Shown here one piece after another: positions 1,960-30,192 of a stretch of DNA of 47,142 nucleotides. The number at the start of each line of letters is the position of its first letter. Position 1 is the first letter of the stretch. A program made the position numbers and the translations under genes. The notes beneath the pieces are model-generated. The model was not told the DNA's origin, ran no database searches, and worked only from the letters and a program-made list of their open reading frames with translations. The stretch is from Fidelibacterota bacterium. Lineage in GTDB: Bacteria; Fidelibacterota; Marinisomatia; SCGC-AAA003-L08; GCA-002704045. The stretch is from positions 1-47,142 of the forward strand of contig NZTO01000062.1 of NCBI GenBank assembly GCA_002703375.1, read 5' to 3'.

Positions 1960-3504
1960 CTATGATCTATTAATTACTATACTCACTAAAACTATAATAT
2001 CAAAAATATCTATTTGAAAATCATCATTTAAATCCATACAAATAATTTCATCATCATTACACCCTGATAAAATACAATTCATTACCAAAATAATATCTTG
2101 GATATTAGCATATGAATCAGCGTTAAAATCTCCTACAACTATGCATGATCCATCGTATTGATTGGCAGCACTGACAGCATTAAATAAATTTAACCTTCCC
2201 GATGAAACTGTTATACCATTTAATGATGAAATTAAATCAACTGTGTTTAAAATTAGATTTTTAATAATCAATGGCGTTGAACTAGGGTTTTGAAGATACT
2301 CTTGATATAAAAAGTCTGAAGCAGAATCATACATCAAACCAATTGCTCCTGAAACAATAGGAGCTGAATATGATGTACCAGTCAATGAACAAGAAGTAAG
2401 ATTGCCTGGCCTAATTGAACAAACACTTGTGCCAGGAGCACCCAAATCAATTGATTCTGCCCCATATGCAGCACTTGAAAATTTGGAATCATTTCTATCT
2501 GTATTAGTTACTGTAATCAAATAGTCACTTGCACAACTTGTAGGAACATCACCTTGTTCATCAACGTTAGCATTAATATTCATTGTAGCAGCAACGCTTA
2601 GAATTCCGACCTCACCCAATGTATCAAACATATCATTCCAAACAGGAAATTCACCTGAGTTACAATCTCCATAATTAATTCCCCAGCTGGAATTAATTAC
2701 TACTACATTCGCTCCTAAAACTCCATCTGTATCAATCCATAAAATTTTATTATCATATGCATAACTATATGATGCAATAACTGTTGATGTCAAAGAAGAT
2801 GATCCGGAAATTGGCATTATCTTTGTATTCCAATTAACACCCACAACATCCAAATTATTATTTCCTTTTGCACCTATCATTCCAGCAACTTTAGTTCCAT
2901 GTGATGTAACAGGATGAGTGAAATCCTGTTCATAAGCATCCCAACCATTTATATCGTCTACATATCCATTTTCATCATCATCTATTTCGTTTTCAATTTC
3001 ATTTATATTAGTCCAAATATTTTCATTTAAATCCTGATGCTCAATATCAAAACCACTATCTACCACTCCAATTACAATATTACGATTATTACCAGTCGAT
3101 ATATCCCAAGCTTCAGGAGCATCAATATCAGCATTTTCTGTGCCACCTCCTTGACCTGTATTATTTAAATGCCACATATTACTATATTGAGGATCATTAG
3201 GAATTAATCTTTCACTAATTAAATGATTTTTTTGTGCGTAAATGACATAAGAAAGTGATTGAATAATATTAATTGCACTATTGATATCAGAATGAACGAT
3301 AGAATCATACTTTATCAAAAAAATATTTAAATAATCAAATAACTTAGTTTCAATCTCAAAACCAAGCATAACTAAGTCTTTTTTCATTATATCATTTGTT
3401 ATGCTTTTGTCAACTTTAACAATAATCTGATTTTCTGAATAGTTACTTGTCAAAATTATATTAAAAAAGATTAAAAAGATGATTATAATTTGATTTTTTC
3501 TCAT
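1960..3504 (-). CDS. Secreted subtilisin-family (S8) serine peptidase with C-terminal dockerin-like repeats
   Basis: Catalytic triad motifs in D/H/S order: GVVDSGFD, HGTKVAGMIGA, GTSYSAPIVSGA. Hydrophobic N-terminus IIIIFLIFFNIILTS. The C-terminal 57 aa contain two D/N-rich repeats. Confidence 0.9.
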   Translation of the reverse strand: MRKNQIIIIFLIFFNIILTSNYSENQIIVKVDKSITNDIMKKDLVMLGFEIETKLFDYLNIFLIKYDSIVHSDINSAINIIQSLSYVIYAQKNHLISERLIPNDPQYSNMWHLNNTGQGGGTENADIDAPEAWDISTGNNRNIVIGVVDSGFDIEHQDLNENIWTNINEIENEIDDDENGYVDDINGWDAYEQDFTHPVTSHGTKVAGMIGAKGNNNLDVVGVNWNTKIMPISGSSSLTSTVIASYSYAYDNKILWIDTDGVLGANVVVINSSWGINYGDCNSGEFPVWNDMFDTLGEVGILSVAATMNINANVDEQGDVPTSCASDYLITVTNTDRNDSKFSSAAYGAESIDLGAPGTSVCSIRPGNLTSCSLTGTSYSAPIVSGAIGLMYDSASDFLYQEYLQNPSSTPLIIKNLILNTVDLISSLNGITVSSGRLNLFNAVSAANQYDGSCIVVGDFNADSYANIQDIILVMNCILSGCNDDEIICMDLNDDFQIDIFDIIVLVSIVINRS

Positions 3505-11203: not shown

Positions 11204-11961
11204 TTACTTAATTTGTGAAGAAGAGATGTAGATTTAACATAATTCATACCTTCAATATGATACCTTATATAATCCTCTAAAAAAAAAGAAATTGAGTTTA
11301 AGTTTATATCATTTACATTCAAATCATTAATTTTATTAATATTTGTATACATTAATTTTTTAATAAACGATAAAGAATTCTCATGAATTAATTTGGAATT
11401 AAAATTATCACAACTCTGACAATAAAGCTGACCATTTATTAATACAATTTTATCTCTGAACAAAGTATTACATTTAGAACAATTTGTTATGTTTGGTTTA
11501 AATCCATTTTGAATTGCAAGATGTAACAAGTAAAAATTATATAAAATTTTACTATTTAACTTTTTTACTGCTAATGTTTTAATTGTACTGTTGATAAGCC
11601 TGAATAGTATAGGCGCTTCATTTAGTGGGTGTGTAGTTTTATCCAAGATTTCAATAATACTAAACAAGGTTAATAATTTTTCTAAATCTTTTCTAATTAG
11701 AATTATATTATAATCCAGTGAAGCTTCTTTTAATAGTTGGATGTCTCTATTTTCTTTAAACATGTATTGTAATCGAATGATATTACCGCATTCTAATACA
11801 CTTGATAATAAATTTTTTTTTCTTTTTGCTCCCTTTGCCATTATAGAAATTTTCCCTTTTTCTTTAGTGAAAATTCTACATATAAGGCTTGTATCACTAA
11901 AAGGTATAGTTTTTAAAACAACAGCTCTTGAATCAATAAACAAATTAATAAGCCTTTGCAA
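11200..11961 (-). CDS. recO: DNA repair protein RecO
   Basis: N-terminal OB-fold region (VLKTIPFSDTSLICRIFTKEKGKISIMAKGAKR) and a C-terminal Cys4 zinc motif CSKC...CQSC. Confidence 0.8.
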   Translation of the reverse strand: MQRLINLFIDSRAVVLKTIPFSDTSLICRIFTKEKGKISIMAKGAKRKKNLLSSVLECGNIIRLQYMFKENRDIQLLKEASLDYNIILIRKDLEKLLTLFSIIEILDKTTHPLNEAPILFRLINSTIKTLAVKKLNSKILYNFYLLHLAIQNGFKPNITNCSKCNTLFRDKIVLINGQLYCQSCDNFNSKLIHENSLSFIKKLMYTNINKINDLNVNDINLNSISFFLEDYIRYHIEGMNYVKSTSLLHKLSK

Positions 11962-13417
11962 AAATAACTCTGTATTTAGCTAATTCTTGCGTGTAAATAC
12001 ATTTTAGATTTTCTGCATTGTTATTAAACGGTATACATCGTATAGTAGCTTTCGTTTCTTTTTTAATTTTATCTTCAGTTTCAATTTTGCCATCCCAACC
12101 ACATTCAACAAACCCACCACTATTAACAATATTTTTAAATTCACTATAATTATTTGTTACAAATGTATTATCATCTCTAAATTTTTTTGCTGTATTAAAC
12201 AAATTATCCTGAATATCATTAATCAGTTCCTGGATTTTCTTAAATCCATCATTTATATTTATAGATTTTTTTTCATTTGTATCTCTTCTAGCAACAAATA
12301 TAGAATTACTATTAATATCCCTTTGTCCAACTTCAATTCTTATTGGAACACCCTTCATTTCCCATTCATTAAATTTATATCCTGGAGATATTTTTTTTCT
12401 AGAATCCAAATGAAAACGTATATTATTAATTTTAAATTCTTCAAAAATATTACTTAAAAAAACCTTTATTTTTTCTAAATCATCATCACTTTTAAATATT
12501 GGAATGATAACTACTTGTATAGGCGCTAATTTAGGAGGCAATCTCAACCCTTTATCATCACCATGAACCATAATTAAGGCTCCAATTAATCTTGTGCTAA
12601 CTCCCCAACTAGTTGCATAAACAAATTCTTCTTTATTATCTTCACTTTGAAACTTCACATCAAATGCCTTAGCAAAATTTTGTCCTAAATAATGAGAAGT
12701 TCCAGCTTGTAATGCTTTTTTATCTCCCATCATTGCTTCAATACAATAAGTATCAATTGCTCCTGCAAATTTTTCAGATTCTGATTTAGTACCAGTCAAT
12801 ACAGGTACAGCCATCACATTTTCAACTACTTCTTTATAGACATCCAACATTTTTCTAGCTTCTGCTATGGCTTCACTTTCTGTTGAATGTGCAGTATGGC
12901 CCTCCTGCCATAAAAATTCACTTGTCCTCAAGAATAATCTAGTTCTCATTTCCCAACGTACTACATTTGCCCACTGATTTATCAAGATTGGTAAATCTCT
13001 ATATGAGTTTATCCACTTTTTATACATTGACCATATTACAGTTTCAGAGGTAGGTCTAACTATAATTTCTTCATCAAGTTTAGAATCTGGATCAACAACA
13101 ATACCACTACCGGATTCAGAATTTTTTAATCTTGAATGAGTTACAACAGCGCATTCTTTGGCAAAACCTTCTACATGCTTTGCCTCTTTTGATAAAAAAG
13201 ATTTTGGTATGAATAAAGGAAAATAAGCATTTACGTGACCTGTTTCCTTAAACCTCTTATCAAATGCTTCTTTTAAACTTTCCCAAATACTATAACCATA
13301 TGGTTTTATAACCATCGTCCCTTTAACTGGGCCATAATCTGCTAATTCTGCTTTTGTAATTATATCAGTATACCATCTTGAATAATCCTGACTTTTTGGG
13401 GTAACGCCTTTTGACAT
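11945..13417 (-). CDS. proS: Prolyl-tRNA synthetase, archaeal/eukaryote-like type
   Basis: 490 aa. N-terminus SRWYTDIITKAELADYGPVKGTMVIKPYGYSIWE. Class II core motifs are present, and it ends in the C-terminal Tyr typical of this ProRS type. Confidence 0.9.
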   Translation of the reverse strand: MSKGVTPKSQDYSRWYTDIITKAELADYGPVKGTMVIKPYGYSIWESLKEAFDKRFKETGHVNAYFPLFIPKSFLSKEAKHVEGFAKECAVVTHSRLKNSESGSGIVVDPDSKLDEEIIVRPTSETVIWSMYKKWINSYRDLPILINQWANVVRWEMRTRLFLRTSEFLWQEGHTAHSTESEAIAEARKMLDVYKEVVENVMAVPVLTGTKSESEKFAGAIDTYCIEAMMGDKKALQAGTSHYLGQNFAKAFDVKFQSEDNKEEFVYATSWGVSTRLIGALIMVHGDDKGLRLPPKLAPIQVVIIPIFKSDDDLEKIKVFLSNIFEEFKINNIRFHLDSRKKISPGYKFNEWEMKGVPIRIEVGQRDINSNSIFVARRDTNEKKSININDGFKKIQELINDIQDNLFNTAKKFRDDNTFVTNNYSEFKNIVNSGGFVECGWDGKIETEDKIKKETKATIRCIPFNNNAENLKCIYTQELAKYRVIFAKAY

Positions 13418-16987: not shown

Positions 16988-19486
16988 ATGAAACAATTAA
17001 ACAAAGGACTGGTTATAGTAGAGTCACCATCTAAAATAAAGACTCTAAAGAAATTCTTAGGCAAAGAATACGCAATTGGTGCTTCAGTTGGACATATTAG
17101 AGATCTACCTAAAAATGATTTAGGTGTTGATATAGATAATAATTTTAAAGCCAATTATATTCCGTCTCCAGATAAAGCGAAAGTCATCAAAGAATTAAAA
17201 ACACAATTAAAAAATGCTGAAACAATTTACATAGCTACTGATCCCGATAGGGAAGGTGAAGCAATTGGTTGGCATCTTATTGAAACACTAAAACCAAAAG
17301 TTCCTGTTAAAAGAATTATTTTTTATGAAATTACTAAATCGGCAATTCTAGAATCTTTTAATAATACTAGAGAGATTAATAGCTCATTAGTAGGTGCTCA
17401 AGAAGCTAGAAGAATTTTAGATAGACTATGGGGATTTCTTGTATCAAAAAAATTGTGGTTAAATATTAAAGGCGGTTTATCAGCAGGTAGAGTTCAAAGT
17501 CCTGCTGTAAAAATCATAGTTGACCGTGAAAAAGAACGTTCAAAATTTGTGGAAAATGAATACTGGAGTATTTTAGGAAAATTTGAAAGCAATGGTATAA
17601 ATTTCGAAGCTTCATTAAAACAATTTGATAATAAAACAATAGCTATTGGTAAAGATTTTAATAAAAACGATGGAACTATAAAAAATAATGAATATCTAGT
17701 TTTAGATAAAAAAATATCACAAGACCTATGTACTAATTTTAAAAATTCAAATTGGTTAATAAAGGATATAAAAGAAAAACCTTCTACTCAAAATCCATAT
17801 CCACCTTTTATTACATCCACTCTTCAACAAGAAGGAATAAGAAAATTAAAAATGTCCTCTCAGGCCGTTATGGTTACAGCGCAAAAATTATACGAAGCAG
17901 GACTTATTACATACATGAGGACAGATTCAATAAACCTTTCGAATGAGGCAATCAGTGCTTCAAGAAAAGCTATCAATGAATCATTTAATTCAAACTATCT
18001 TCCAGAAAAACCTAGAGTTTTTAAAAGTAAAGTTAAAAATGCTCAAGAAGCTCACGAAGCAATTCGACCTGCTGGCTCAACATTCCAACATCCTGATAAA
18101 TTAAAAAATTCATTAGAATCGTCTGAGTGGAAATTATATAATTTAATTTGGAAAAGAACTCTTGCATCCCAGATGAAATCAGCTAAGATATTAAATACAA
18201 GTATTGATATTATCAATGATAATGCTTTGTTAAGAGCAACGGGAAAGGTAATCGAATTTCCTGGTTTTTTAAAAATTTATGTTGAAGATATTGATGATCC
18301 AAATAAAGATAAAGATGACAAAGAAAATACTTTGCCAAAATTAAAAATAAATCAAAAAATTAATTGCGTAAATTTTGAATCTAATCAGCATTTCACTAAA
18401 CCTATTGCTAGATTTACTGAAGCATCATTAGTGAAAGAGCTAGAAAAACTTGGTATAGGTAGACCGTCAACTTACTCTACAATTATGAGTAATATTCAGA
18501 AGCGAGGGTATGTAAATAAAGTCAAAGGAGCAATGATACCGACTTTGACAGCATATGCAGTTATACAATTTTTAGAACGGTACTTTACTGATCTAGTTAA
18601 TTTACAATTCACAGCTGATATGGAAAATATCCTTGATTCAATTTCTAGATCTGAAATAAAATCAACAGATTTTCTTTTAAATTTTTATAATGGATCAAAG
18701 AAAAATAAAGGATTAAAAGAATTATTAGATAACGAATTTGATAAAAATAAATCTAAAACAATTATGAGTTTGAAAAATGGTTCAAAAGATGAAGTTTTAG
18801 TTAAAATTGGTAGATATGGTACTTACTTACAATATAATGATAAAAATACAAATTTATATGATGATTTTATACCAAGTGATTTAACTTACAAAAAAGCTGT
18901 AAACCTTTTTGACAAGAAAAAACAAGAATCAACACATAGTTTTGTCCATCCTGAAACTCAACAGCCAATATTTTTAAAGGAAGGGAGATTTGGACCATAT
19001 GTACAATGTGATAAAAAAATGAAATCATTACCTCCAGGCATTACATTAGATCAAATAAATGAAAAAGATGCTATAAATCTTATTGATATGCCTATTAAAC
19101 TAGGTAAACACCCAAATCTTAAGGATGATATACTTAAAGATATAGGAAGGTATGGTCCCTACCTTCGTTGCGGTAAAAAATCTGCATCACTTCCAAAAGA
19201 TGATGATATTTTAAATCTTTCAATTGAAAGAGCAATCGAAATTATTGATCAATCAAAAAATAAAAATAGCTCATCTGTTATAAAAATTATTGGACAGATG
19301 CCTGAAACCAAAAATAATATTGAATTGAAAGATGGAAGATATGGTGCATATGTGACTGATGGAAAAATAAACGCTACAATACCAAAGAACGAAAAGATTG
19401 ATGACTTGTCTTTAGAAAAGGCAATCAAATTAATACTAGATAAAAAAGCTAAAGGTCCAACTAAACGATTTAAAAGGAAAAAATAA
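16988..19486 (+). CDS. topA: DNA topoisomerase I
   Basis: Toprim start VIVESPSKIKTLKKFLG and active-site Tyr region GLITYMRTDS. The C-terminus holds four Cys-poor GR(Y/F)G.Y repeats rather than Cys4 zinc ribbons. Confidence 0.95.
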   Translation: MKQLNKGLVIVESPSKIKTLKKFLGKEYAIGASVGHIRDLPKNDLGVDIDNNFKANYIPSPDKAKVIKELKTQLKNAETIYIATDPDREGEAIGWHLIETLKPKVPVKRIIFYEITKSAILESFNNTREINSSLVGAQEARRILDRLWGFLVSKKLWLNIKGGLSAGRVQSPAVKIIVDREKERSKFVENEYWSILGKFESNGINFEASLKQFDNKTIAIGKDFNKNDGTIKNNEYLVLDKKISQDLCTNFKNSNWLIKDIKEKPSTQNPYPPFITSTLQQEGIRKLKMSSQAVMVTAQKLYEAGLITYMRTDSINLSNEAISASRKAINESFNSNYLPEKPRVFKSKVKNAQEAHEAIRPAGSTFQHPDKLKNSLESSEWKLYNLIWKRTLASQMKSAKILNTSIDIINDNALLRATGKVIEFPGFLKIYVEDIDDPNKDKDDKENTLPKLKINQKINCVNFESNQHFTKPIARFTEASLVKELEKLGIGRPSTYSTIMSNIQKRGYVNKVKGAMIPTLTAYAVIQFLERYFTDLVNLQFTADMENILDSISRSEIKSTDFLLNFYNGSKKNKGLKELLDNEFDKNKSKTIMSLKNGSKDEVLVKIGRYGTYLQYNDKNTNLYDDFIPSDLTYKKAVNLFDKKKQESTHSFVHPETQQPIFLKEGRFGPYVQCDKKMKSLPPGITLDQINEKDAINLIDMPIKLGKHPNLKDDILKDIGRYGPYLRCGKKSASLPKDDDILNLSIERAIEIIDQSKNKNSSSVIKIIGQMPETKNNIELKDGRYGAYVTDGKINATIPKNEKIDDLSLEKAIKLILDKKAKGPTKRFKRKK

Positions 19487-21129
19487 TGTCAAACATTCCC
19501 AAAAATTTTAAAGAAAAAATAATTTCATTGTGTAAAAGAAGAGGCTTTATTTTTCAAAGCAGTGAAATTTATGGAGGATTAAAAAGTGCATATGACTATG
19601 GACCACTTGGTGTAGAGTTAAAACGTAATCTAATGAATGAATGGTGGAAATCAATGGTGCATAAGCGTGAAGATATAATTGGACTTGACGCATCAATAAT
19701 TATGCATCCAAAAGTATGGGAAGCTTCAGGTCATTTAGCTGGTTTTTCTGATCCTTTGGTTGATTGTTTAGTTAGTAAAGAACGTTTTAGAGCTGATAAA
19801 GCACCAAAGCTAAATGTTAAAGATGATATTACAATAACTTGTAACGATAAGGGACAAGCTAAAAACTTCCAAAAAATAATTGAAAATAGATTTGATATAC
19901 TTTTAAAAAGGGAAGGTAAACAACTTAAAGGTTTAAAATTAATTGACGAGAAAAATTTTGGTTTTTTTGAAAACAATAATACCAGACCAATAAAAACATT
20001 TGAATATAAAGGATATGTAAGTCCGACATTTGGCTGTCCATTTTTAAGTGAAGAAAGACAATTTAATCTGATGTTTAGAAGTCAAATAGGTCCAGTGGAT
20101 GTACTGGGAGAAATTACAAAATACATTCGAAAAAATAAAAACACAAGCTCAGATGAACTTAGAACTGGTATTGATAAACTTGTAAAAAAATCTGCAGTTT
20201 ATTTAAGACCAGAAACTGCACAAGCTATGTTTGTTCAATTTTTAAATTGTCAACAAACCATGAGCATGAAAATACCATTTGGAATTGCTCAAATGGGAAA
20301 AAGCTTCAGAAATGAAATTACTACAGAGCATTTTATTTTTAGATCTTGCGAATTTGAACAAATGGAAATGGAATTTTTTGTCGAACCTGGGACACAAGAA
20401 AAATGGCTGGATTATTGGGTTGAAAAAAGAATGTCTTGGTGGCAAAAGTTTGCCAATCACCCAGAAAATTTTAGATATAGAGCGCACGATGAAAGCGAAT
20501 TGGCACATTATGCAGATGCCTGTTATGATATTGAATATAAATATCCTTGGGGATATGATGAATTGGAAGGCGTAGCAAGTAGAACTGATTACGATTTAAA
20601 AAAACACGCAGAACAATCCGGAACAAAGTTAAGTTACTTTGATCAACAAAAGACTGATCCTGATACTGGGAAAAATGGTTGGAGATATACTCCTTATGTT
20701 ATTGAACCAGCTGCAGGAGCCACTAGAGGTTTATTAGTGTATTTGATGGATGCATATACAGAAGAAACCATAAAAGATGCTAAGGGAAATGAAGCAACTC
20801 GCATAGTGATGAAACTACATCCTAAACTAGCTCCTATTAAAGTTGCTATTTTACCGCTAGTAAAAAAAGAGGGCTTACCAGAAATAGCAAGAAAATTAGT
20901 TAATGAACTTTTTGAATTAGGTATTAATGCCCGTTATGATGAACAACATTCTATTGGAAAGCGATATAGAAGACACGATGAGGCAGGAACACCATTCTGT
21001 ATTACAATTGATGGGCAAACAAAAGAAGACAAGTCAGTAACAATTCGTGATAGAGATACTATGAAGCAAGAACGGATTCCATTAGCTAATTTAAAAGAAA
21101 TAATTCAAAAAAGGCTGTCTGAGGCTTAA
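19486..21129 (+). CDS. glyQS: Glycyl-tRNA synthetase, alpha2 (GlyQS) type
   Basis: YGGLKSAYDYGPLG, YLRPETAQAMFVQF, EPAAGATRG. The ATG overlaps the topA stop by 1 nt (TAATG). Confidence 0.95.
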   Translation: MSNIPKNFKEKIISLCKRRGFIFQSSEIYGGLKSAYDYGPLGVELKRNLMNEWWKSMVHKREDIIGLDASIIMHPKVWEASGHLAGFSDPLVDCLVSKERFRADKAPKLNVKDDITITCNDKGQAKNFQKIIENRFDILLKREGKQLKGLKLIDEKNFGFFENNNTRPIKTFEYKGYVSPTFGCPFLSEERQFNLMFRSQIGPVDVLGEITKYIRKNKNTSSDELRTGIDKLVKKSAVYLRPETAQAMFVQFLNCQQTMSMKIPFGIAQMGKSFRNEITTEHFIFRSCEFEQMEMEFFVEPGTQEKWLDYWVEKRMSWWQKFANHPENFRYRAHDESELAHYADACYDIEYKYPWGYDELEGVASRTDYDLKKHAEQSGTKLSYFDQQKTDPDTGKNGWRYTPYVIEPAAGATRGLLVYLMDAYTEETIKDAKGNEATRIVMKLHPKLAPIKVAILPLVKKEGLPEIARKLVNELFELGINARYDEQHSIGKRYRRHDEAGTPFCITIDGQTKEDKSVTIRDRDTMKQERIPLANLKEIIQKRLSEA

Positions 21130-22264: not shown

Positions 22265-22717
22265 TTAAATAGTATCTAGAACATCACAAGCATGAGATTT
22301 TGTTTTAACTTTATCATATACTTGTATTATAGTACCCTTTTCATCTATTAAATAAGAAATTCTTGCTATACCCATATATTCTTTTCCATACATTTTCTTT
22401 TTTACCCAAGCACCGTACTTTTGAATCATATTTTTATTTTCATCACTTAATAATTCATATTGAAATTCTTGTTTAATCTTAAAATTTTTATTTTTTTGAA
22501 CTGAATCAGCTGAAACGCCAACTATGATAATTCCTTGATCTTGGAATTTTTGGTATTCATCACGGAATCCCTGACCTTGTACTGTTCAACCTGGTGTTGA
22601 GGCTTTAGGATAAAACCATAAAATTACTTTTTTACCATAAAAATCAGCTAACTTTACATCCTTATCATCAGTATTTTTTAATATAAAATCTGGCGCTTTA
22701 TCTCCTAATTTTAACAA
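22265..22717 (-). CDS. bcp: Bcp-type peroxiredoxin with in-frame TGA at the peroxidatic Cys position (predicted selenocysteine, codon 44)
   Basis: Not in the ORF track. TTG start at 22717 is preceded in frame by TAA, with AAGGAG 7 nt upstream. The 150 codons are collinear with Bcp: WFYPKASTPG[TGA 22586-22588]TVQGQGFRD, GVSADS, LLSDEN, GIARISYLIDEKG. TAA stop at 22265-22267. Confidence 0.7.
22552..22571 (-). promoter_or_regulatory. Candidate SECIS-like hairpin downstream of the bcp UGA
   Basis: mRNA sequence GGGAUUC-CGUGAU-GAAUACC, i.e. 2 bp, a G.A mismatch, then 4 bp, with a hexaloop containing GU. The loop lies +22 to +27 nt after the UGA. The stem is weak and was folded by eye only. Confidence 0.3.
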
Positions 22718-22763
22718 TTAATTTCTCCTTATATTTTAATATATGAATAGTGCGTATATTTGT

Positions 22764-22775
22764 TAACTTAAGTTA
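22764..22775. promoter_or_regulatory. 12-bp perfect palindrome TAACTTAAGTTA in the divergent bcp/grx intergenic region (possible operator)
   Basis: It is self-complementary over 12 bp and sits in the 80-nt spacer between two divergent redox genes. It is not statistically compelling in AT-rich DNA. Confidence 0.2.
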
Positions 22776-22797
22776 TTAAAATTTTTTAAGGATTCAA

Positions 22798-23046
22798 ATG
22801 ATAAAAATATATTCAACAAATTGGTGTCCTTCTTGTAATTGGGCAAAAAAATTTCTTGATGATAAAAACATTAAATATAAAGAGATCAATATTGAAGAAA
22901 TTAATATGTCAAGAAAAGATCTACAATCTTTAACAGGAGGAAGTACAGTTCCTCAAATTGTCATCAATGGTAAATCTATAGGCGGATATGATAATCTACT
23001 AAAATTAAATAATAATGGTAAACTTATGAAATTGATAAAAGAATGA
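22798..23046 (+). CDS. grxC: Glutaredoxin (Grx3-like, CPSC active site)
   Basis: 82 aa. IYSTNWCPSCNWAKKFL and TVPQIVINGKSIGGYD. It ends in a TGA stop (23044-23046) that overlaps the next ATG. Confidence 0.9.
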   Translation: MIKIYSTNWCPSCNWAKKFLDDKNIKYKEINIEEINMSRKDLQSLTGGSTVPQIVINGKSIGGYDNLLKLNNNGKLMKLIKE

Positions 23047-23678
23047 AATTTATACCCAATCACATAGAAAAATACTGCATTGAACAATCCAAAAAAGATT
23101 CAAAATTATTAGATGATCTAACAGATTATACAAAAAAAAATATTGAAGGGTCAGAGATGCTTTGTGGACCTTTAGTAGGAAGTGTTCTACAAGGAATTAT
23201 TTGCATGATACAAGCAAAAAAGATTCTAGAAATTGGTACATATACTGGTTACAGTGCTCTTAAAATGGCAGAGGTGCTTCCTTCAGATGGAACAATAGAT
23301 ACTTGCGAATTAGGTGACAATCATTGTCAAATAGCAAGAAAATTTTTTAAAAAATCTCCCTTTAACGAATCCATAAAAATTCATAGGGGAAAAGCGTTAG
23401 AATCTATTAATAAATTCTCTGATAATTATTTTGATATGGTTTTCATAGATGCAGACAAAATTAATTATAAGAATTATTATAAAAAATCATTGAATTTAGT
23501 AAAAAAGGGAGGAGTCATTGTTTTAGACAATATGTTATGGAGTGGCAATGTTATTCAACCTAATGATGAACAATCGAAATCGTTAAGAAATACAGCTGAT
23601 TTTATTAATAACGATATTAAATGTTTCAATTTTTTAATGCCCGTTAGAGATGGTTTAATGGTTTGTATAAAAAAATGA
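23043..23678 (+). CDS. Class I SAM-dependent O-methyltransferase (caffeoyl-CoA OMT family)
   Basis: SAM motif LEIGTYTGYSAL, metal/catechol-type motifs FIDADK and DNMLWSG. TGA stop at 23676-23678. Confidence 0.8.
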   Translation: MKFIPNHIEKYCIEQSKKDSKLLDDLTDYTKKNIEGSEMLCGPLVGSVLQGIICMIQAKKILEIGTYTGYSALKMAEVLPSDGTIDTCELGDNHCQIARKFFKKSPFNESIKIHRGKALESINKFSDNYFDMVFIDADKINYKNYYKKSLNLVKKGGVIVLDNMLWSGNVIQPNDEQSKSLRNTADFINNDIKCFNFLMPVRDGLMVCIKK

Positions 23679-27513: not shown

Positions 27514-28687
27514 TTTAATATACCATTTAAATAATGAATTAAACGGCATTAAGAAAGATGGTTTGTATAAAGACGAAAGGGTAATTAATTCTCCTCAAAA
27601 TACAGAGATTGTCGTAAGAAATAAAAATGTTCTTAATTTCTGTGCTAATAACTATTTAGGACTTTCTAACAATAAAGATTTAATCAAAGCTGCTCAAAAT
27701 GGTTTAGATAGATGGGGTCTTGGTTTAAGTTCTGTTAGATTCATTTGTGGTACACAAACAATACATAAAGAACTTGAAGAAAAAATATCTAAATTTCTTC
27801 AAAAAGAAGATACAATTTTATATACGTCTTGTTTCGATGCGAATGGTGGTTTATTTGAAACAATTCTAGGACCTGAAGATGCAATAATATCAGATCAACT
27901 TAATCATGCATCTATTATTGATGGAATTAGGCTTTCAAAAGCTGAAAGATATCGTTATAAAAATAATGACATGAATGAATTAGAAGATTGCTTAAAAAAA
28001 ACTCAATCAAATAAAATCAGATTAATAGCAACAGATGGAATTTTTTCAATGGATGGATATGTTGCTAAACTTGATGAAATATGTTACCTAGCTAAAAAAT
28101 ACAATGCTCTCACAATGGTTGATGATTGTCATGCAACAGGTTTTTTTGGAAAAACTGGTAGAGGATCTATAGAACATTGTAATGTTATTGAGAAAGTAGA
28201 TATAGTAACATCAACTTTGGGGAAAGCCATGGGAGGAGGATCAGGTGGTTTTACCTCAAGTAAAAAAGAAATTATTGATATTTTAAGACAACGCTCAAGG
28301 CCTTATTTGTTTAGTAATACACTTATACCAGCTATTGTAACAGCATCCATTAAATGTATTGATTTAATTTCTAACAATACATCTCTAAGAGATAAATTAG
28401 AAAAAAACACACTCTATTTCAGAAATAAAATGGAAGAAGCAAATTTTAATATAAAATCTGGGGTTCATCCAATTGTTCCTGTTATGTTTGGTGATGCTAA
28501 AATAGCAAAAAAAATAGCTGATGATTTATTAGACGAGGGTATATATGTTATTGCATTCTCATATCCAGTTGTACCAAAAGGAGAAGCTAGAATTCGTGTT
28601 CAAATTAGTGCGGCTCATTCCCAACAGCAATTAAATAAAGCAATAAACGCTTTTATTAAAATTGGAGAGAAATATAATGTTATATAA
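27506..28687 (+). CDS. kbl: 2-amino-3-ketobutyrate CoA ligase (glycine C-acetyltransferase)
   Basis: 393 aa alpha-oxoamine synthase. [15 protein letters not shown], and the PLP-lysine region [10 protein letters not shown]. Confidence 0.9.
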
Positions 28688-29486
28688 AATGTTTTAGATT
28701 GACAACAGATTCAAATAGCAATACTGTTTCTCCAGATATCCATACATTTTTCCAGTCTTTATCATATGAAATTTTTAAATTTCCACCTTTTGATGTACAA
28801 TCTACTTCATAATTGAAATTAAAATCTTTGCTTGCATAGAACAATGCAGCAAGCGAACCAGAACCGCAAGATAGCATCAATCTTTCAACTCCTTTTTCAT
28901 ATGTAATAACTTCTAATGTACTATTATTTATTTTTTTAAAAAAATTTACATTTACACCCTTTGGTTGGAATATTTTTGAATTTCTTATTTTTTTTCCAAT
29001 TTCCTCTAAATTTTTCATTTTATAAATTTTATTAATTCGAGTACAAAAATGCATAGCACCAGAATCAACGACATAACCTTCATGACCTTTTATAATTATC
29101 TTATCTGATATAAACTTTGGAGTCTTCATTTTAATAGATACCTGTTTATCTTTAATTATTGCTTCATGAATTCCATCTCCAGAAACGAATGATGATTTTT
29201 CATTAATATATTTTTTTTCATAGAGCAGTTTAACTGCACATCTAGCTCCATTAGCACAAAACGTTTCCCAAGTTCCATCTGAATTATAATAATCCATTTT
29301 AAAGTCAAAATCATCGCAGTCTGATATTATAATTATACAATCTGCTCCAACACCAGTTCTACGATTACATATGTTTTTAATGAAAGTACTATTTTTTATG
29401 TCATCAGCACATTTATTTTCTAAAAATAATATTACATCATTACCATTTCCATGTGCTTTTATAAAAGGAATGTTTAAATTTTTAAT
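28680..29486 (-). CDS. dapF: Diaminopimelate epimerase; upstream boundary set at a putative ATT start (no canonical start is available)
   Basis: The track ORF starts at ATG 29297. The same frame is open upstream to 29486 and encodes the conserved N-terminus [16 protein letters not shown]...[13 protein letters not shown], which matches E. coli MQFSKMHGLGNDFMVV...RHLGVGFDQLLVV. First catalytic Cys FCANGARC; second catalytic Cys region SCGSGS. Confidence 0.75.
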
Positions 29487-30192
29487 TTATTTCTCCTGAC
29501 AATTTTTTTAATTGTGTAGTTGTAATATCAATTAAATCATCAATTGATTTACTTTGATAAAGCTTATTGGAAATTTTTTCACCAATTCTTATTATTACTG
29601 TTGTTGGTTTTATTAAAAATCTATTTTTTGGTTTAAAGTTGAATGCTCCATCAAAACCAACAGGCAATATTGGTGTATTCGTATTTTTAGCCATATAGAA
29701 TCCCCCTTTTTTCAGTACGTTCATTTTACCTGTTAATGTTCTTGTACCTTCAGGATGAATTCCTATATGTATACCTTTTTTTAATACTTTTTCTGCATTT
29801 TGCATTCTTTTAATAGAATCCATTCTATTTTTTCTGTTTATCACTACTGCATTTAATCTTTTTAAAATCCAGCCATAGACAGGATATTTGAGATTAGTAT
29901 CTGCAACAATACCCGTGAATTTACCTTGCATAAAGGTTCCCCAAAGAAAAGGATCAATCATACTAGAATGGTTTGCCATGACTATAAATGGTCCATCTTT
30001 TGGAAATTCACCTTCAATTTTAACTTTTATACCTAAACAAAAAACAAATATTTTTGCAAAAAATTTTAATATTGGATAAGTAAATTTTGGGAAAATTAAT
30101 GTCAACACAAATACTCCAAAACCACCCACAAACATTAAAAAGGATCCTAGTATAGTTATCAGAACTGTGTATAAAAAATATATGTAATTCAT
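29482..30192 (-). CDS. plsC: 1-acyl-sn-glycerol-3-phosphate acyltransferase
   Basis: HxxxxD motif ANHSSMIDP, the PEGTRT motif and an N-terminal TM segment. Confidence 0.85.
   Translation of the reverse strand: MNYIYFLYTVLITILGSFLMFVGGFGVFVLTLIFPKFTYPILKFFAKIFVFCLGIKVKIEGEFPKDGPFIVMANHSSMIDPFLWGTFMQGKFTGIVADTNLKYPVYGWILKRLNAVVINRKNRMDSIKRMQNAEKVLKKGIHIGIHPEGTRTLTGKMNVLKKGGFYMAKNTNTPILPVGFDGAFNFKPKNRFLIKPTTVIIRIGEKISNKLYQSKSIDDLIDITTTQLKKLSGEIN

Follow-up and report, generated by a model that had tools for sequence, protein, structure and literature searches.

A predicted selenocysteine-containing Bcp-type peroxiredoxin encoded beside a divergent glutaredoxin gene in a marine Marinimicrobia (SAR406) bacterium

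Peroxiredoxin (Prx) selenoproteins are said to have been described from marine metagenomes by Zhang and Gladyshev in work on the Sargasso Sea in 2005. The Prx with a TxxU motif, in which U denotes selenocysteine (Sec), is an established prokaryotic selenoprotein family that was first shown in Eubacterium acidaminophilum (PMC2398784; PMC13188914), and proteins combining the PF00578 domain with TxxU contribute 253 Sec sequences in 34 Global Ocean Sampling (GOS) samples surveyed by the same authors in 2008, ranking near the top of all marine selenoprotein families in abundance (PMC2398784). The subject of the present analysis is a gene on the minus strand of a 47,142-nucleotide stretch of DNA (contig NZTO01000062.1, hereafter the window) from a Marinimicrobia (SAR406) bacterium. 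This gene very probably encodes a Bcp/PrxQ peroxiredoxin with Sec at its peroxidatic position (U44), inserted co-translationally at a UGA codon under the direction of a stem-loop and acting through a one-Sec cycle. As the first-pass annotation of the window had recognized, the family itself is not new: the gene is one more predicted Sec-Prx of the type already known from the ocean, and the current understanding of selenoproteins is unchanged. What is added is modest, namely the pairing of a one-Sec form with a divergently transcribed glutaredoxin gene (grx), a minimal but persistent hairpin, and a widespread Sec-to-Trp mistranslation in databases.

With the Prx selenoproteins of marine metagenomes the gene shares the Pfam domain, the PxxxTxxU motif with peroxidatic Sec, a surface or pelagic ocean setting, abundant cysteine (Cys) homologues, and a selenocysteine insertion sequence (SECIS) candidate within the coding sequence (CDS) just after the UGA. 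Those surveys were read-based and carried no lineage, whereas here the gene is seen in its SAR406 context together with a conserved divergent glutaredoxin; the GOS entries were compared by description. The Bcp of E. coli and other BCP/PrxQ proteins (NF006960; PDB entry 5enu, and 3gkk and 5iiz from Xanthomonas campestris) are collinear with the product over its full length and share the FYPKxxTPG[C/U]T loop, the catalytic Arg and a size of ~150 amino acids. Unlike them, the window protein has Sec in place of Cys and lacks both the +5 resolving Cys of E. coli Bcp and the alpha3 resolving Cys of the X. campestris BCP, in which respect it is like the 1-Cys BCPs. PrxU of E. acidaminophilum (NF040737, peroxi_PrxU), the first Sec peroxiredoxin to be characterized, also has Sec at the peroxidatic position, but it belongs to another Prx subfamily, its model spans 233 positions, and its host is a strict anaerobe rather than an oxic-ocean heterotroph.

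Reading frame, family assignment and active site

The first-pass annotation had proposed a minus-strand frame of 150 codons running from TTG to TAA, with AAGGAG 7 nt upstream and an in-frame stop before the start, whose product would be collinear end to end with Bcp-type peroxiredoxins apart from a single TGA at the column of the peroxidatic Cys. It had also described an intact and conserved frame beyond the TGA, Gln at the position of the resolving Cys, and a gene that automated callers of open reading frames (ORFs) would miss. All of this was borne out when the coordinates were rechecked and the product was compared with profiles and structures. The start codon occupies positions 22717-22715 and the stop codon positions 22267-22265, with an in-frame TAA (22720-22718) directly 5' of the start; the remaining signals are collected in Table 1. 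The mechanical ORF list holds only fragments of 43 and 54 amino acids over the gene, and public code-11 gene calls on long contigs likewise break it into pieces of 54 and 43 amino acids.

Scored with Cys substituted at codon 44, the product matches the Pfam AhpC-TSA profile (PF00578) at E=4e-36, with 124.1 bits against a cut-off of 26 and coverage of profile positions 2-123 of 124, and it reaches 173.7 bits with the NCBIfam Bcp equivalog model NF006960, for which the curated cut-off is 140. The PrxU model NF040737 gives 45.1 bits, below its cut-off of 270. Judged from these profile scores, the gene is a Bcp/PrxQ-subfamily peroxiredoxin and not an orthologue of PrxU. The best matches in PDB alignments are similarly BCPs (5enu and the X. 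campestris series), which put codon 44 on the C of FYPKxxTPGC and align GIERSTFLID of 5enu, with its R, to GIARISYLID of the window protein. The active site would thus consist of P37, T41, U44 and R119, the first three lying in the motif P37-K-A-S-T41-P-G-U44.

No resolving Cys is present in the window protein either at +5, where Q49 is found, or at alpha3, where K80 is found. Its one further Cys, C143, is not conserved among the orthologues. This absence places the predicted protein with the 1-Cys-type members of the BCPs and leaves its family membership unaffected. An alpha3 Cys is present in 26 of 40 aligned Sec forms.

Table 1. Positions of the predicted peroxiredoxin gene, its signals and its divergent neighbour in the window
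Feature	Position	Strand	Remarks
Predicted Sec-containing Bcp/PrxQ-type peroxiredoxin, complete CDS	22265..22717	-	150 codons, TTG start, TAA stop; orthologues collinear over full length
UGA codon 44, predicted Sec, peroxidatic position of PxxxTxxU	22586..22588	-	sole in-frame interruption of the gene
Arg119 codon, conserved catalytic Arg (ARISYLID)	22361..22363	-	invariant in alignments A1 and A2
Candidate bacterial SECIS mini-hairpin	22553..22570	-	5' arm GGAUUC 22570-22565, loop CGUGAU 22564-22559, 3' arm GAAUAC 22558-22553
Shine-Dalgarno sequence AAGGAG	22725..22730	-	7-nt spacer to TTG; AGGAG-like sites at the same place in orthologous loci
Promoter-like site TTAACA-17 nt-TATATT	22738..22766	-	10/12 matches; consensus match only
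Glutaredoxin gene, 82 amino acids, divergent, proposed reductant partner	22798..23046	+	Pfam Glutaredoxin E=2e-19; conserved synteny

Conservation of the UGA codon and the genetic code

The same TGA is found in more than 40 distinct orthologues, at about 45-99% identity, from independent assemblies, while ~119 relatives carry TGT or TGC at the column of codon 44; TGG was not seen there in any of the relatives' DNA that was examined. Among the best 120 database matches (55-99% identity), all of ~150 amino acids and collinear with the window protein, the column is Cys in 63 and is stored as 'W' in 57, so that alignment of the homologues does bring out the Cys/Sec pairs that the first-pass annotation had thought worth looking for. 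Wherever the DNA behind such a 'W' was inspected the codon proved to be TGA, as it is in loci L001-L012. When one genome was scanned for each GTDB species, TGA stood at the column in 10 loci, mostly in metagenome-assembled and single-amplified genomes of Marinimicrobia/Neomarinimicrobiota, and TGT or TGC in 70 others, mainly from Flavobacteriia with the classical CxxxxC; a scan of metagenomes added 30 further TGA forms. A neighbor-joining tree of the best 120 matches requires a minimum of three switches between Sec and Cys, and Sec/Cys pairs reach up to 80% identity. Orthologues of the Sec form were also seen in lineages of higher GC content (L132 and L147, GC 0.59-0.62; L035, GC 0.50).

Among the ways in which its prediction could fail, the first-pass annotation had itself named a recent pseudogene, with TGT or TGC in close relatives and further decay in this copy, and an error in sequencing or assembly. 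That a Cys-type bcp was recently inactivated here by a nonsense mutation from TGY to TGA would account for the one in-frame stop and for the fragments that code-11 calls yield. Against this, the TGA is kept in the orthologues down to ~45% identity, across several lineages and assemblies, and the gene bears no further disabling change, its ribosome-binding site, start codon and catalytic residues all being intact. Furthermore, comparison with the 73% identical L001 gives a nonsynonymous rate (dN) of 0.135 and a synonymous rate (dS) of 1.11 for the 99 codons that follow the UGA, and dN=0.24 and dS=1.29 for the 39 codons that precede it. Since dN is far below dS after the UGA, the downstream part is translated and under purifying selection, and it is very unlikely that the gene is a pseudogene. 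An erroneous TGA, for which nothing speaks beyond the prior possibility of such errors, has a negligible probability: the identical codon recurs in Tara, Logan, JGI and NCBI assemblies, short-read and long-read alike, including a polished long-read contig of 1.24 Mb (L206). In that same contig the O-methyltransferase gene beside grx (1746-2380) is broken in two, with products of 110 and 80 amino acids, the gene being intact (211 amino acids) in the window and in short-read contigs. The split is probably a residual long-read indel error, and the bcp TGA there is still identical.

The entries with 'W' raise the further possibility that UGA is read throughout the genome as Trp (translation table 4) or as Gly (table 25), so that the residue would be W or G; the 57 such entries among the best 120 homologues would appear to favor it. 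Yet those 'W' residues correspond to TGA in the DNA and arose where genes on short, AT-rich contigs had been called with code 4. The window itself (GC 25-31%) is packed with long table-11 ORFs, and its 42 genes end in TAA 27 times, in TGA nine times and in TAG six times. Past none of the nine TGA stops does the frame stay open for more than 15 codons, and TGG serves as the Trp codon 136 times. Both adjacent genes (22798-23046 and 23043-23678) end in TGA, as the first-pass annotation had pointed out in arguing for the standard code. A scan of the window and the related loci for other UGA-interrupted ORFs with redox motifs returned none besides the Prx gene. Moreover, with either Trp or Gly as the peroxidatic residue, catalysis would be lost. 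Reassignment of the codon is thus improbable in the extreme, and the code of this organism is the standard one.

The same code-4 calls leave their mark on public catalogues, which hold the selenoprotein with Trp at its active site (STPGWT; gene calls on L007-L011, proteins P0001-P0115), and they over-extend the neighbors that end in TGA, giving a glutaredoxin (Grx) of 89 rather than 82 amino acids and a methyltransferase of 223 rather than 211. Mining such catalogues for peroxiredoxins, or for variants with an active-site Trp, would mislead.

A candidate SECIS hairpin and the decoding of the UGA

Bacterial SECIS elements are described by a loop of 3-9 nt, a stem of 4-16 bp, a G in the first two loop positions, a distance of 16-37 nt from the UGA to the loop, and a minimum free energy (MFE) of -7.5 kcal/mol or lower (PMC13188914). 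Downstream of the UGA in bcp lies a small stem-loop whose geometry falls within the published ranges, with a loop of 6 nt that starts 21 nt after the UGA and a stem of 6 bp; G stands at loop position 2 in 39 of 40 Sec forms. One pair of the stem in the window is a G-A mismatch; should C22552 pair in its place, the A would be bulged out. Like the SECIS of E. coli fdhF and the bSECISearch consensus, the element is an in-ORF stem-loop 3' of the UGA with a small apical loop, G followed by U or G at loop positions 2-3, and 21-nt spacing. At 6 bp and roughly -2 to -4.5 kcal/mol, its helix falls well short of these in length and strength, no lower stem is conserved, and the sequence does not resemble that of fdhF. 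A lower stem was considered and set aside, as it is seen in some orthologues and is not conserved in the window.

Applied to 40 distinct Sec forms, RNAalifold returns one helix, formed between columns 19-24 and 31-36 (numbered from the U of the UGA). Standard pairs occupy 97.5% of its cells in these sequences, as compared with a mean of 88.2% after shuffling, and the covariation score is 0.453 against 0.263 in shuffles; neither value is reached by any of 500 shuffles. Compensatory changes are present at four of the six pairs. When the 3' partner is slid by 1-3 columns as a control, pairing is found in only 10-60% of cells. The covariation extends to synonymous sites, where UUC (Phe) accompanies GAA (Glu) in 26 cases and CUC (Leu) accompanies GAG (Glu) in 12, as opposed to a single UUC with GAG and no CUC with GAA; GGA with U and GGG with C occur 18 and 13 times, respectively.

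Distant Cys forms were tried as a control for the hairpin and rejected: between one and three of the six positions pair in them, but their peptide differs, and the constraint on RNA is not separated from that on protein. Arguments from codon choice were used in their place. Of the 40 Sec forms, 38 encode the Arg in the loop by CGU or CGG, as opposed to AGA, the codon for 74% of the window's Arg residues and the one used most often for the loop Arg by distant Cys forms. The codons that make up the hairpin are uncommon in the window, TTC accounting for 11.7% of Phe codons, CGT for 7.4% of Arg codons and TAC for 17.5% of Tyr codons, and distant Cys forms that share the L-R-D peptide mostly use UUA and AGA. 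In L147 and L035 different hairpins follow the UGA (in L147, for example, CCCGUA-GUA-UACGGG), which shows that the SECIS would not be uniform across the Sec-Bcp family.

Several observations weigh against Sec insertion at this hairpin. The helix has little stability, with -2.2 kcal/mol for the window and a median of -3.4, and alone misses the MFE limit of -7.5 kcal/mol; the 60-nt region does fold at -11.0 kcal/mol, but as a different structure, and the local fold has no advantage in stability over shuffled sequence (z=-0.10). If G-U pairs are counted, the peptide G-F-R-D-E-F nearly forces the pairing by itself, and the covariation counts are inflated by shared ancestry. Rfam contains no match at gathering thresholds and, at E<=10, only chance snoRNA-like matches on the loop UGAUGA. 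In addition, the helix is not exclusive to UGA genes, as the closest Cys forms (L184, L185 and L194, with TGT or TGC), in which the peptide is also shared, keep both the hairpin and the rare codons, in the forms GAAUUC-CGUGAU-GAAUUU and GAACUC-CGUGAU-GAGUUU. These three loci may have switched from Sec to Cys recently and retain their SECIS as a fossil; alternatively, the helix could be older than Sec or serve another role. Finally, no selA, selB, selD or tRNA-Sec turned up in a search of the window, ~10 kb of flanking sequence to either side and 1.9 Mb of related loci, of which all those beyond the window and its flanks come from other organisms. The search employed ARAGORN for tRNA-Sec and tblastn with E. 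coli SelA, SelB and SelD, the latter returning over the 1.9 Mb only one weak GTPase match, in L071.

These points bear most directly on the possibility that the UGA is decoded not, or not only, as Sec: Cys might be inserted through the Sec pathway under selenium limitation, or the codon might be passed by near-cognate read-through after loss of the Sec machinery, with the hairpin acting as a read-through or pausing element. The missing machinery genes, the weakness of the hairpin and its persistence in close Cys-coding relatives, where it could have a role independent of SelB, are all compatible with such decoding. On the other side, the UGA is kept precisely at the column of the redox-active Cys, and Sec members of this family are experimentally established as well as widely predicted (PMC13188914, PMC2398784). 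The machinery search, moreover, covered ~70 kb of the organism's own genome, which would have at least 1.2 Mb judging by the contig of a close relative, and SelD has been reported in SAR406, as an 'orphan' in three single-cell genomes (PMC5029168). The literature on Marinimicrobia/SAR406 and Sec yielded nothing more specific than this orphan SelD. Taken together, decoding other than as Sec is unlikely, and insertion of Sec at U44 by a host that would possess selA, selB, selC and selD is the preferred reading.

That host belongs to the marine Marinimicrobia (SAR406): Candidatus Marinimicrobia/Neomarinimicrobiota bacterium is the name attached to cluster members that share 90% identity or more with the DnaE and prolyl-tRNA synthetase (ProRS) of the window. 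An initial assignment to SAR11, prompted by the GC content of 27% and the streamlined arrangement of the genes, was dropped in view of these names; complete genomes of Pelagibacter are, in addition, reported to be without selC (bioRxiv 10.64898/2026.04.03.716425).

The glutaredoxin neighbor, the proposed cycle and other genes of the window

The divergent gene grx lies 80 bp from bcp, and this arrangement is kept in the clade of the window and in several distant loci with the Sec form. Among the Sec forms with enough flanking sequence, an adjacent grx accompanies nine of the 12 that are without the alpha3 Cys, as compared with three of the 23 that have it (Fisher p=5e-4, ignoring phylogeny). 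1-Cys BCPs are reported to depend on glutathione and Grx. With neither a +5 nor an alpha3 Cys available in the window protein, recycling would most likely proceed through glutathione and the divergent Grx, and the neighboring gene suggests this system, rather than thioredoxin, as the reductant.

The resulting model, which draws on the synteny and on known 1-Cys BCPs, can be outlined as follows. Recoding of the UGA would most likely be directed by the in-CDS stem-loop, with its 6-bp stem and 6-nt loop CGKGAU 21 nt after the UGA; SelB, loaded with Sec-tRNA(Sec), would recognize this element. In the finished protein, U44, activated by T41 and R119, would reduce the peroxide (U44-SeH + ROOH -> U44-SeOH), and the selenenic acid would in turn be reduced by glutathione and the neighboring Grx, completing a one-Sec cycle. 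Sec forms with the alpha3 Cys would instead form a selenenylsulfide that is then reduced by thioredoxin.

A broader proposal is evenly balanced between holding and failing. It states that Sec-Bcp is a conserved trait of pelagic SAR406, making the phylum a user of Sec, and that the clade of the window is a distinct one-Sec subtype hard-wired to a divergent grx, with a minimal 6-bp SECIS that persists as a 'fossil' in sister lineages that have switched to Cys. Should the trait be real, an abundant phylum would use Sec, something that the literature hints at only through the orphan SelD. For the SAR406 lineage in question, the gene would imply a dependence on selenium for peroxide defense, which is of relevance to the trace-element ecology of the ocean. 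In addition, the more than 40 Sec forms and the close Cys forms that share the small hairpin amount to a natural experiment on Sec/Cys exchange and on the minimal SECIS.

Upstream of bcp, promoter-like sites such as the one in Table 1 are no more numerous than in shuffled sequence. A palindrome (TTTGTTAACTT/AAGTTATTAAA) at 22759-22780, between the divergent bcp and grx, overlaps the -35-like hexamer, and palindromic TGTGTAA(A)TTTACACA-like sequences occur in a similar place in the bcp-grx intergenic regions of L014, L021 and L135. The intergenic palindrome could be an operator of a shared redox regulator.

Elsewhere in the window, the region 28680-29489 was considered as a second selenoprotein and rejected, as its frame is open and has a normal Cys. 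The frame (28680-29486, minus strand) encodes diaminopimelate epimerase (DapF) and is open for 269 codons, with no ATG, GTG or TTG before the N-terminal HGNGND. The start codon is likely ATT (29486-29484), 6 nt after AGGAG; the ORF lists give a truncated product of 205 amino acids. The plus-strand gene at 19486-21129 encodes glycine--tRNA ligase (NF003211, E=1.5e-177), for which Pfam alone gives only generic class-II domains, and the minus-strand gene at 11945-13417 encodes the ProRS, which is of the archaeal/eukaryote type with a ProRS-C_1 domain. Near the left end lies a subtilase gene (1960-3504, minus strand), beyond which, past the end of the window, follow large secreted proteins with dockerin-like modules (L093/L094, 11555-18246), among them an esterase, a trypsin-like protease and a protein of 940 amino acids. 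The gene for this 940-residue protein runs off the end of the window, and its 3' part makes up bases 1-1950.

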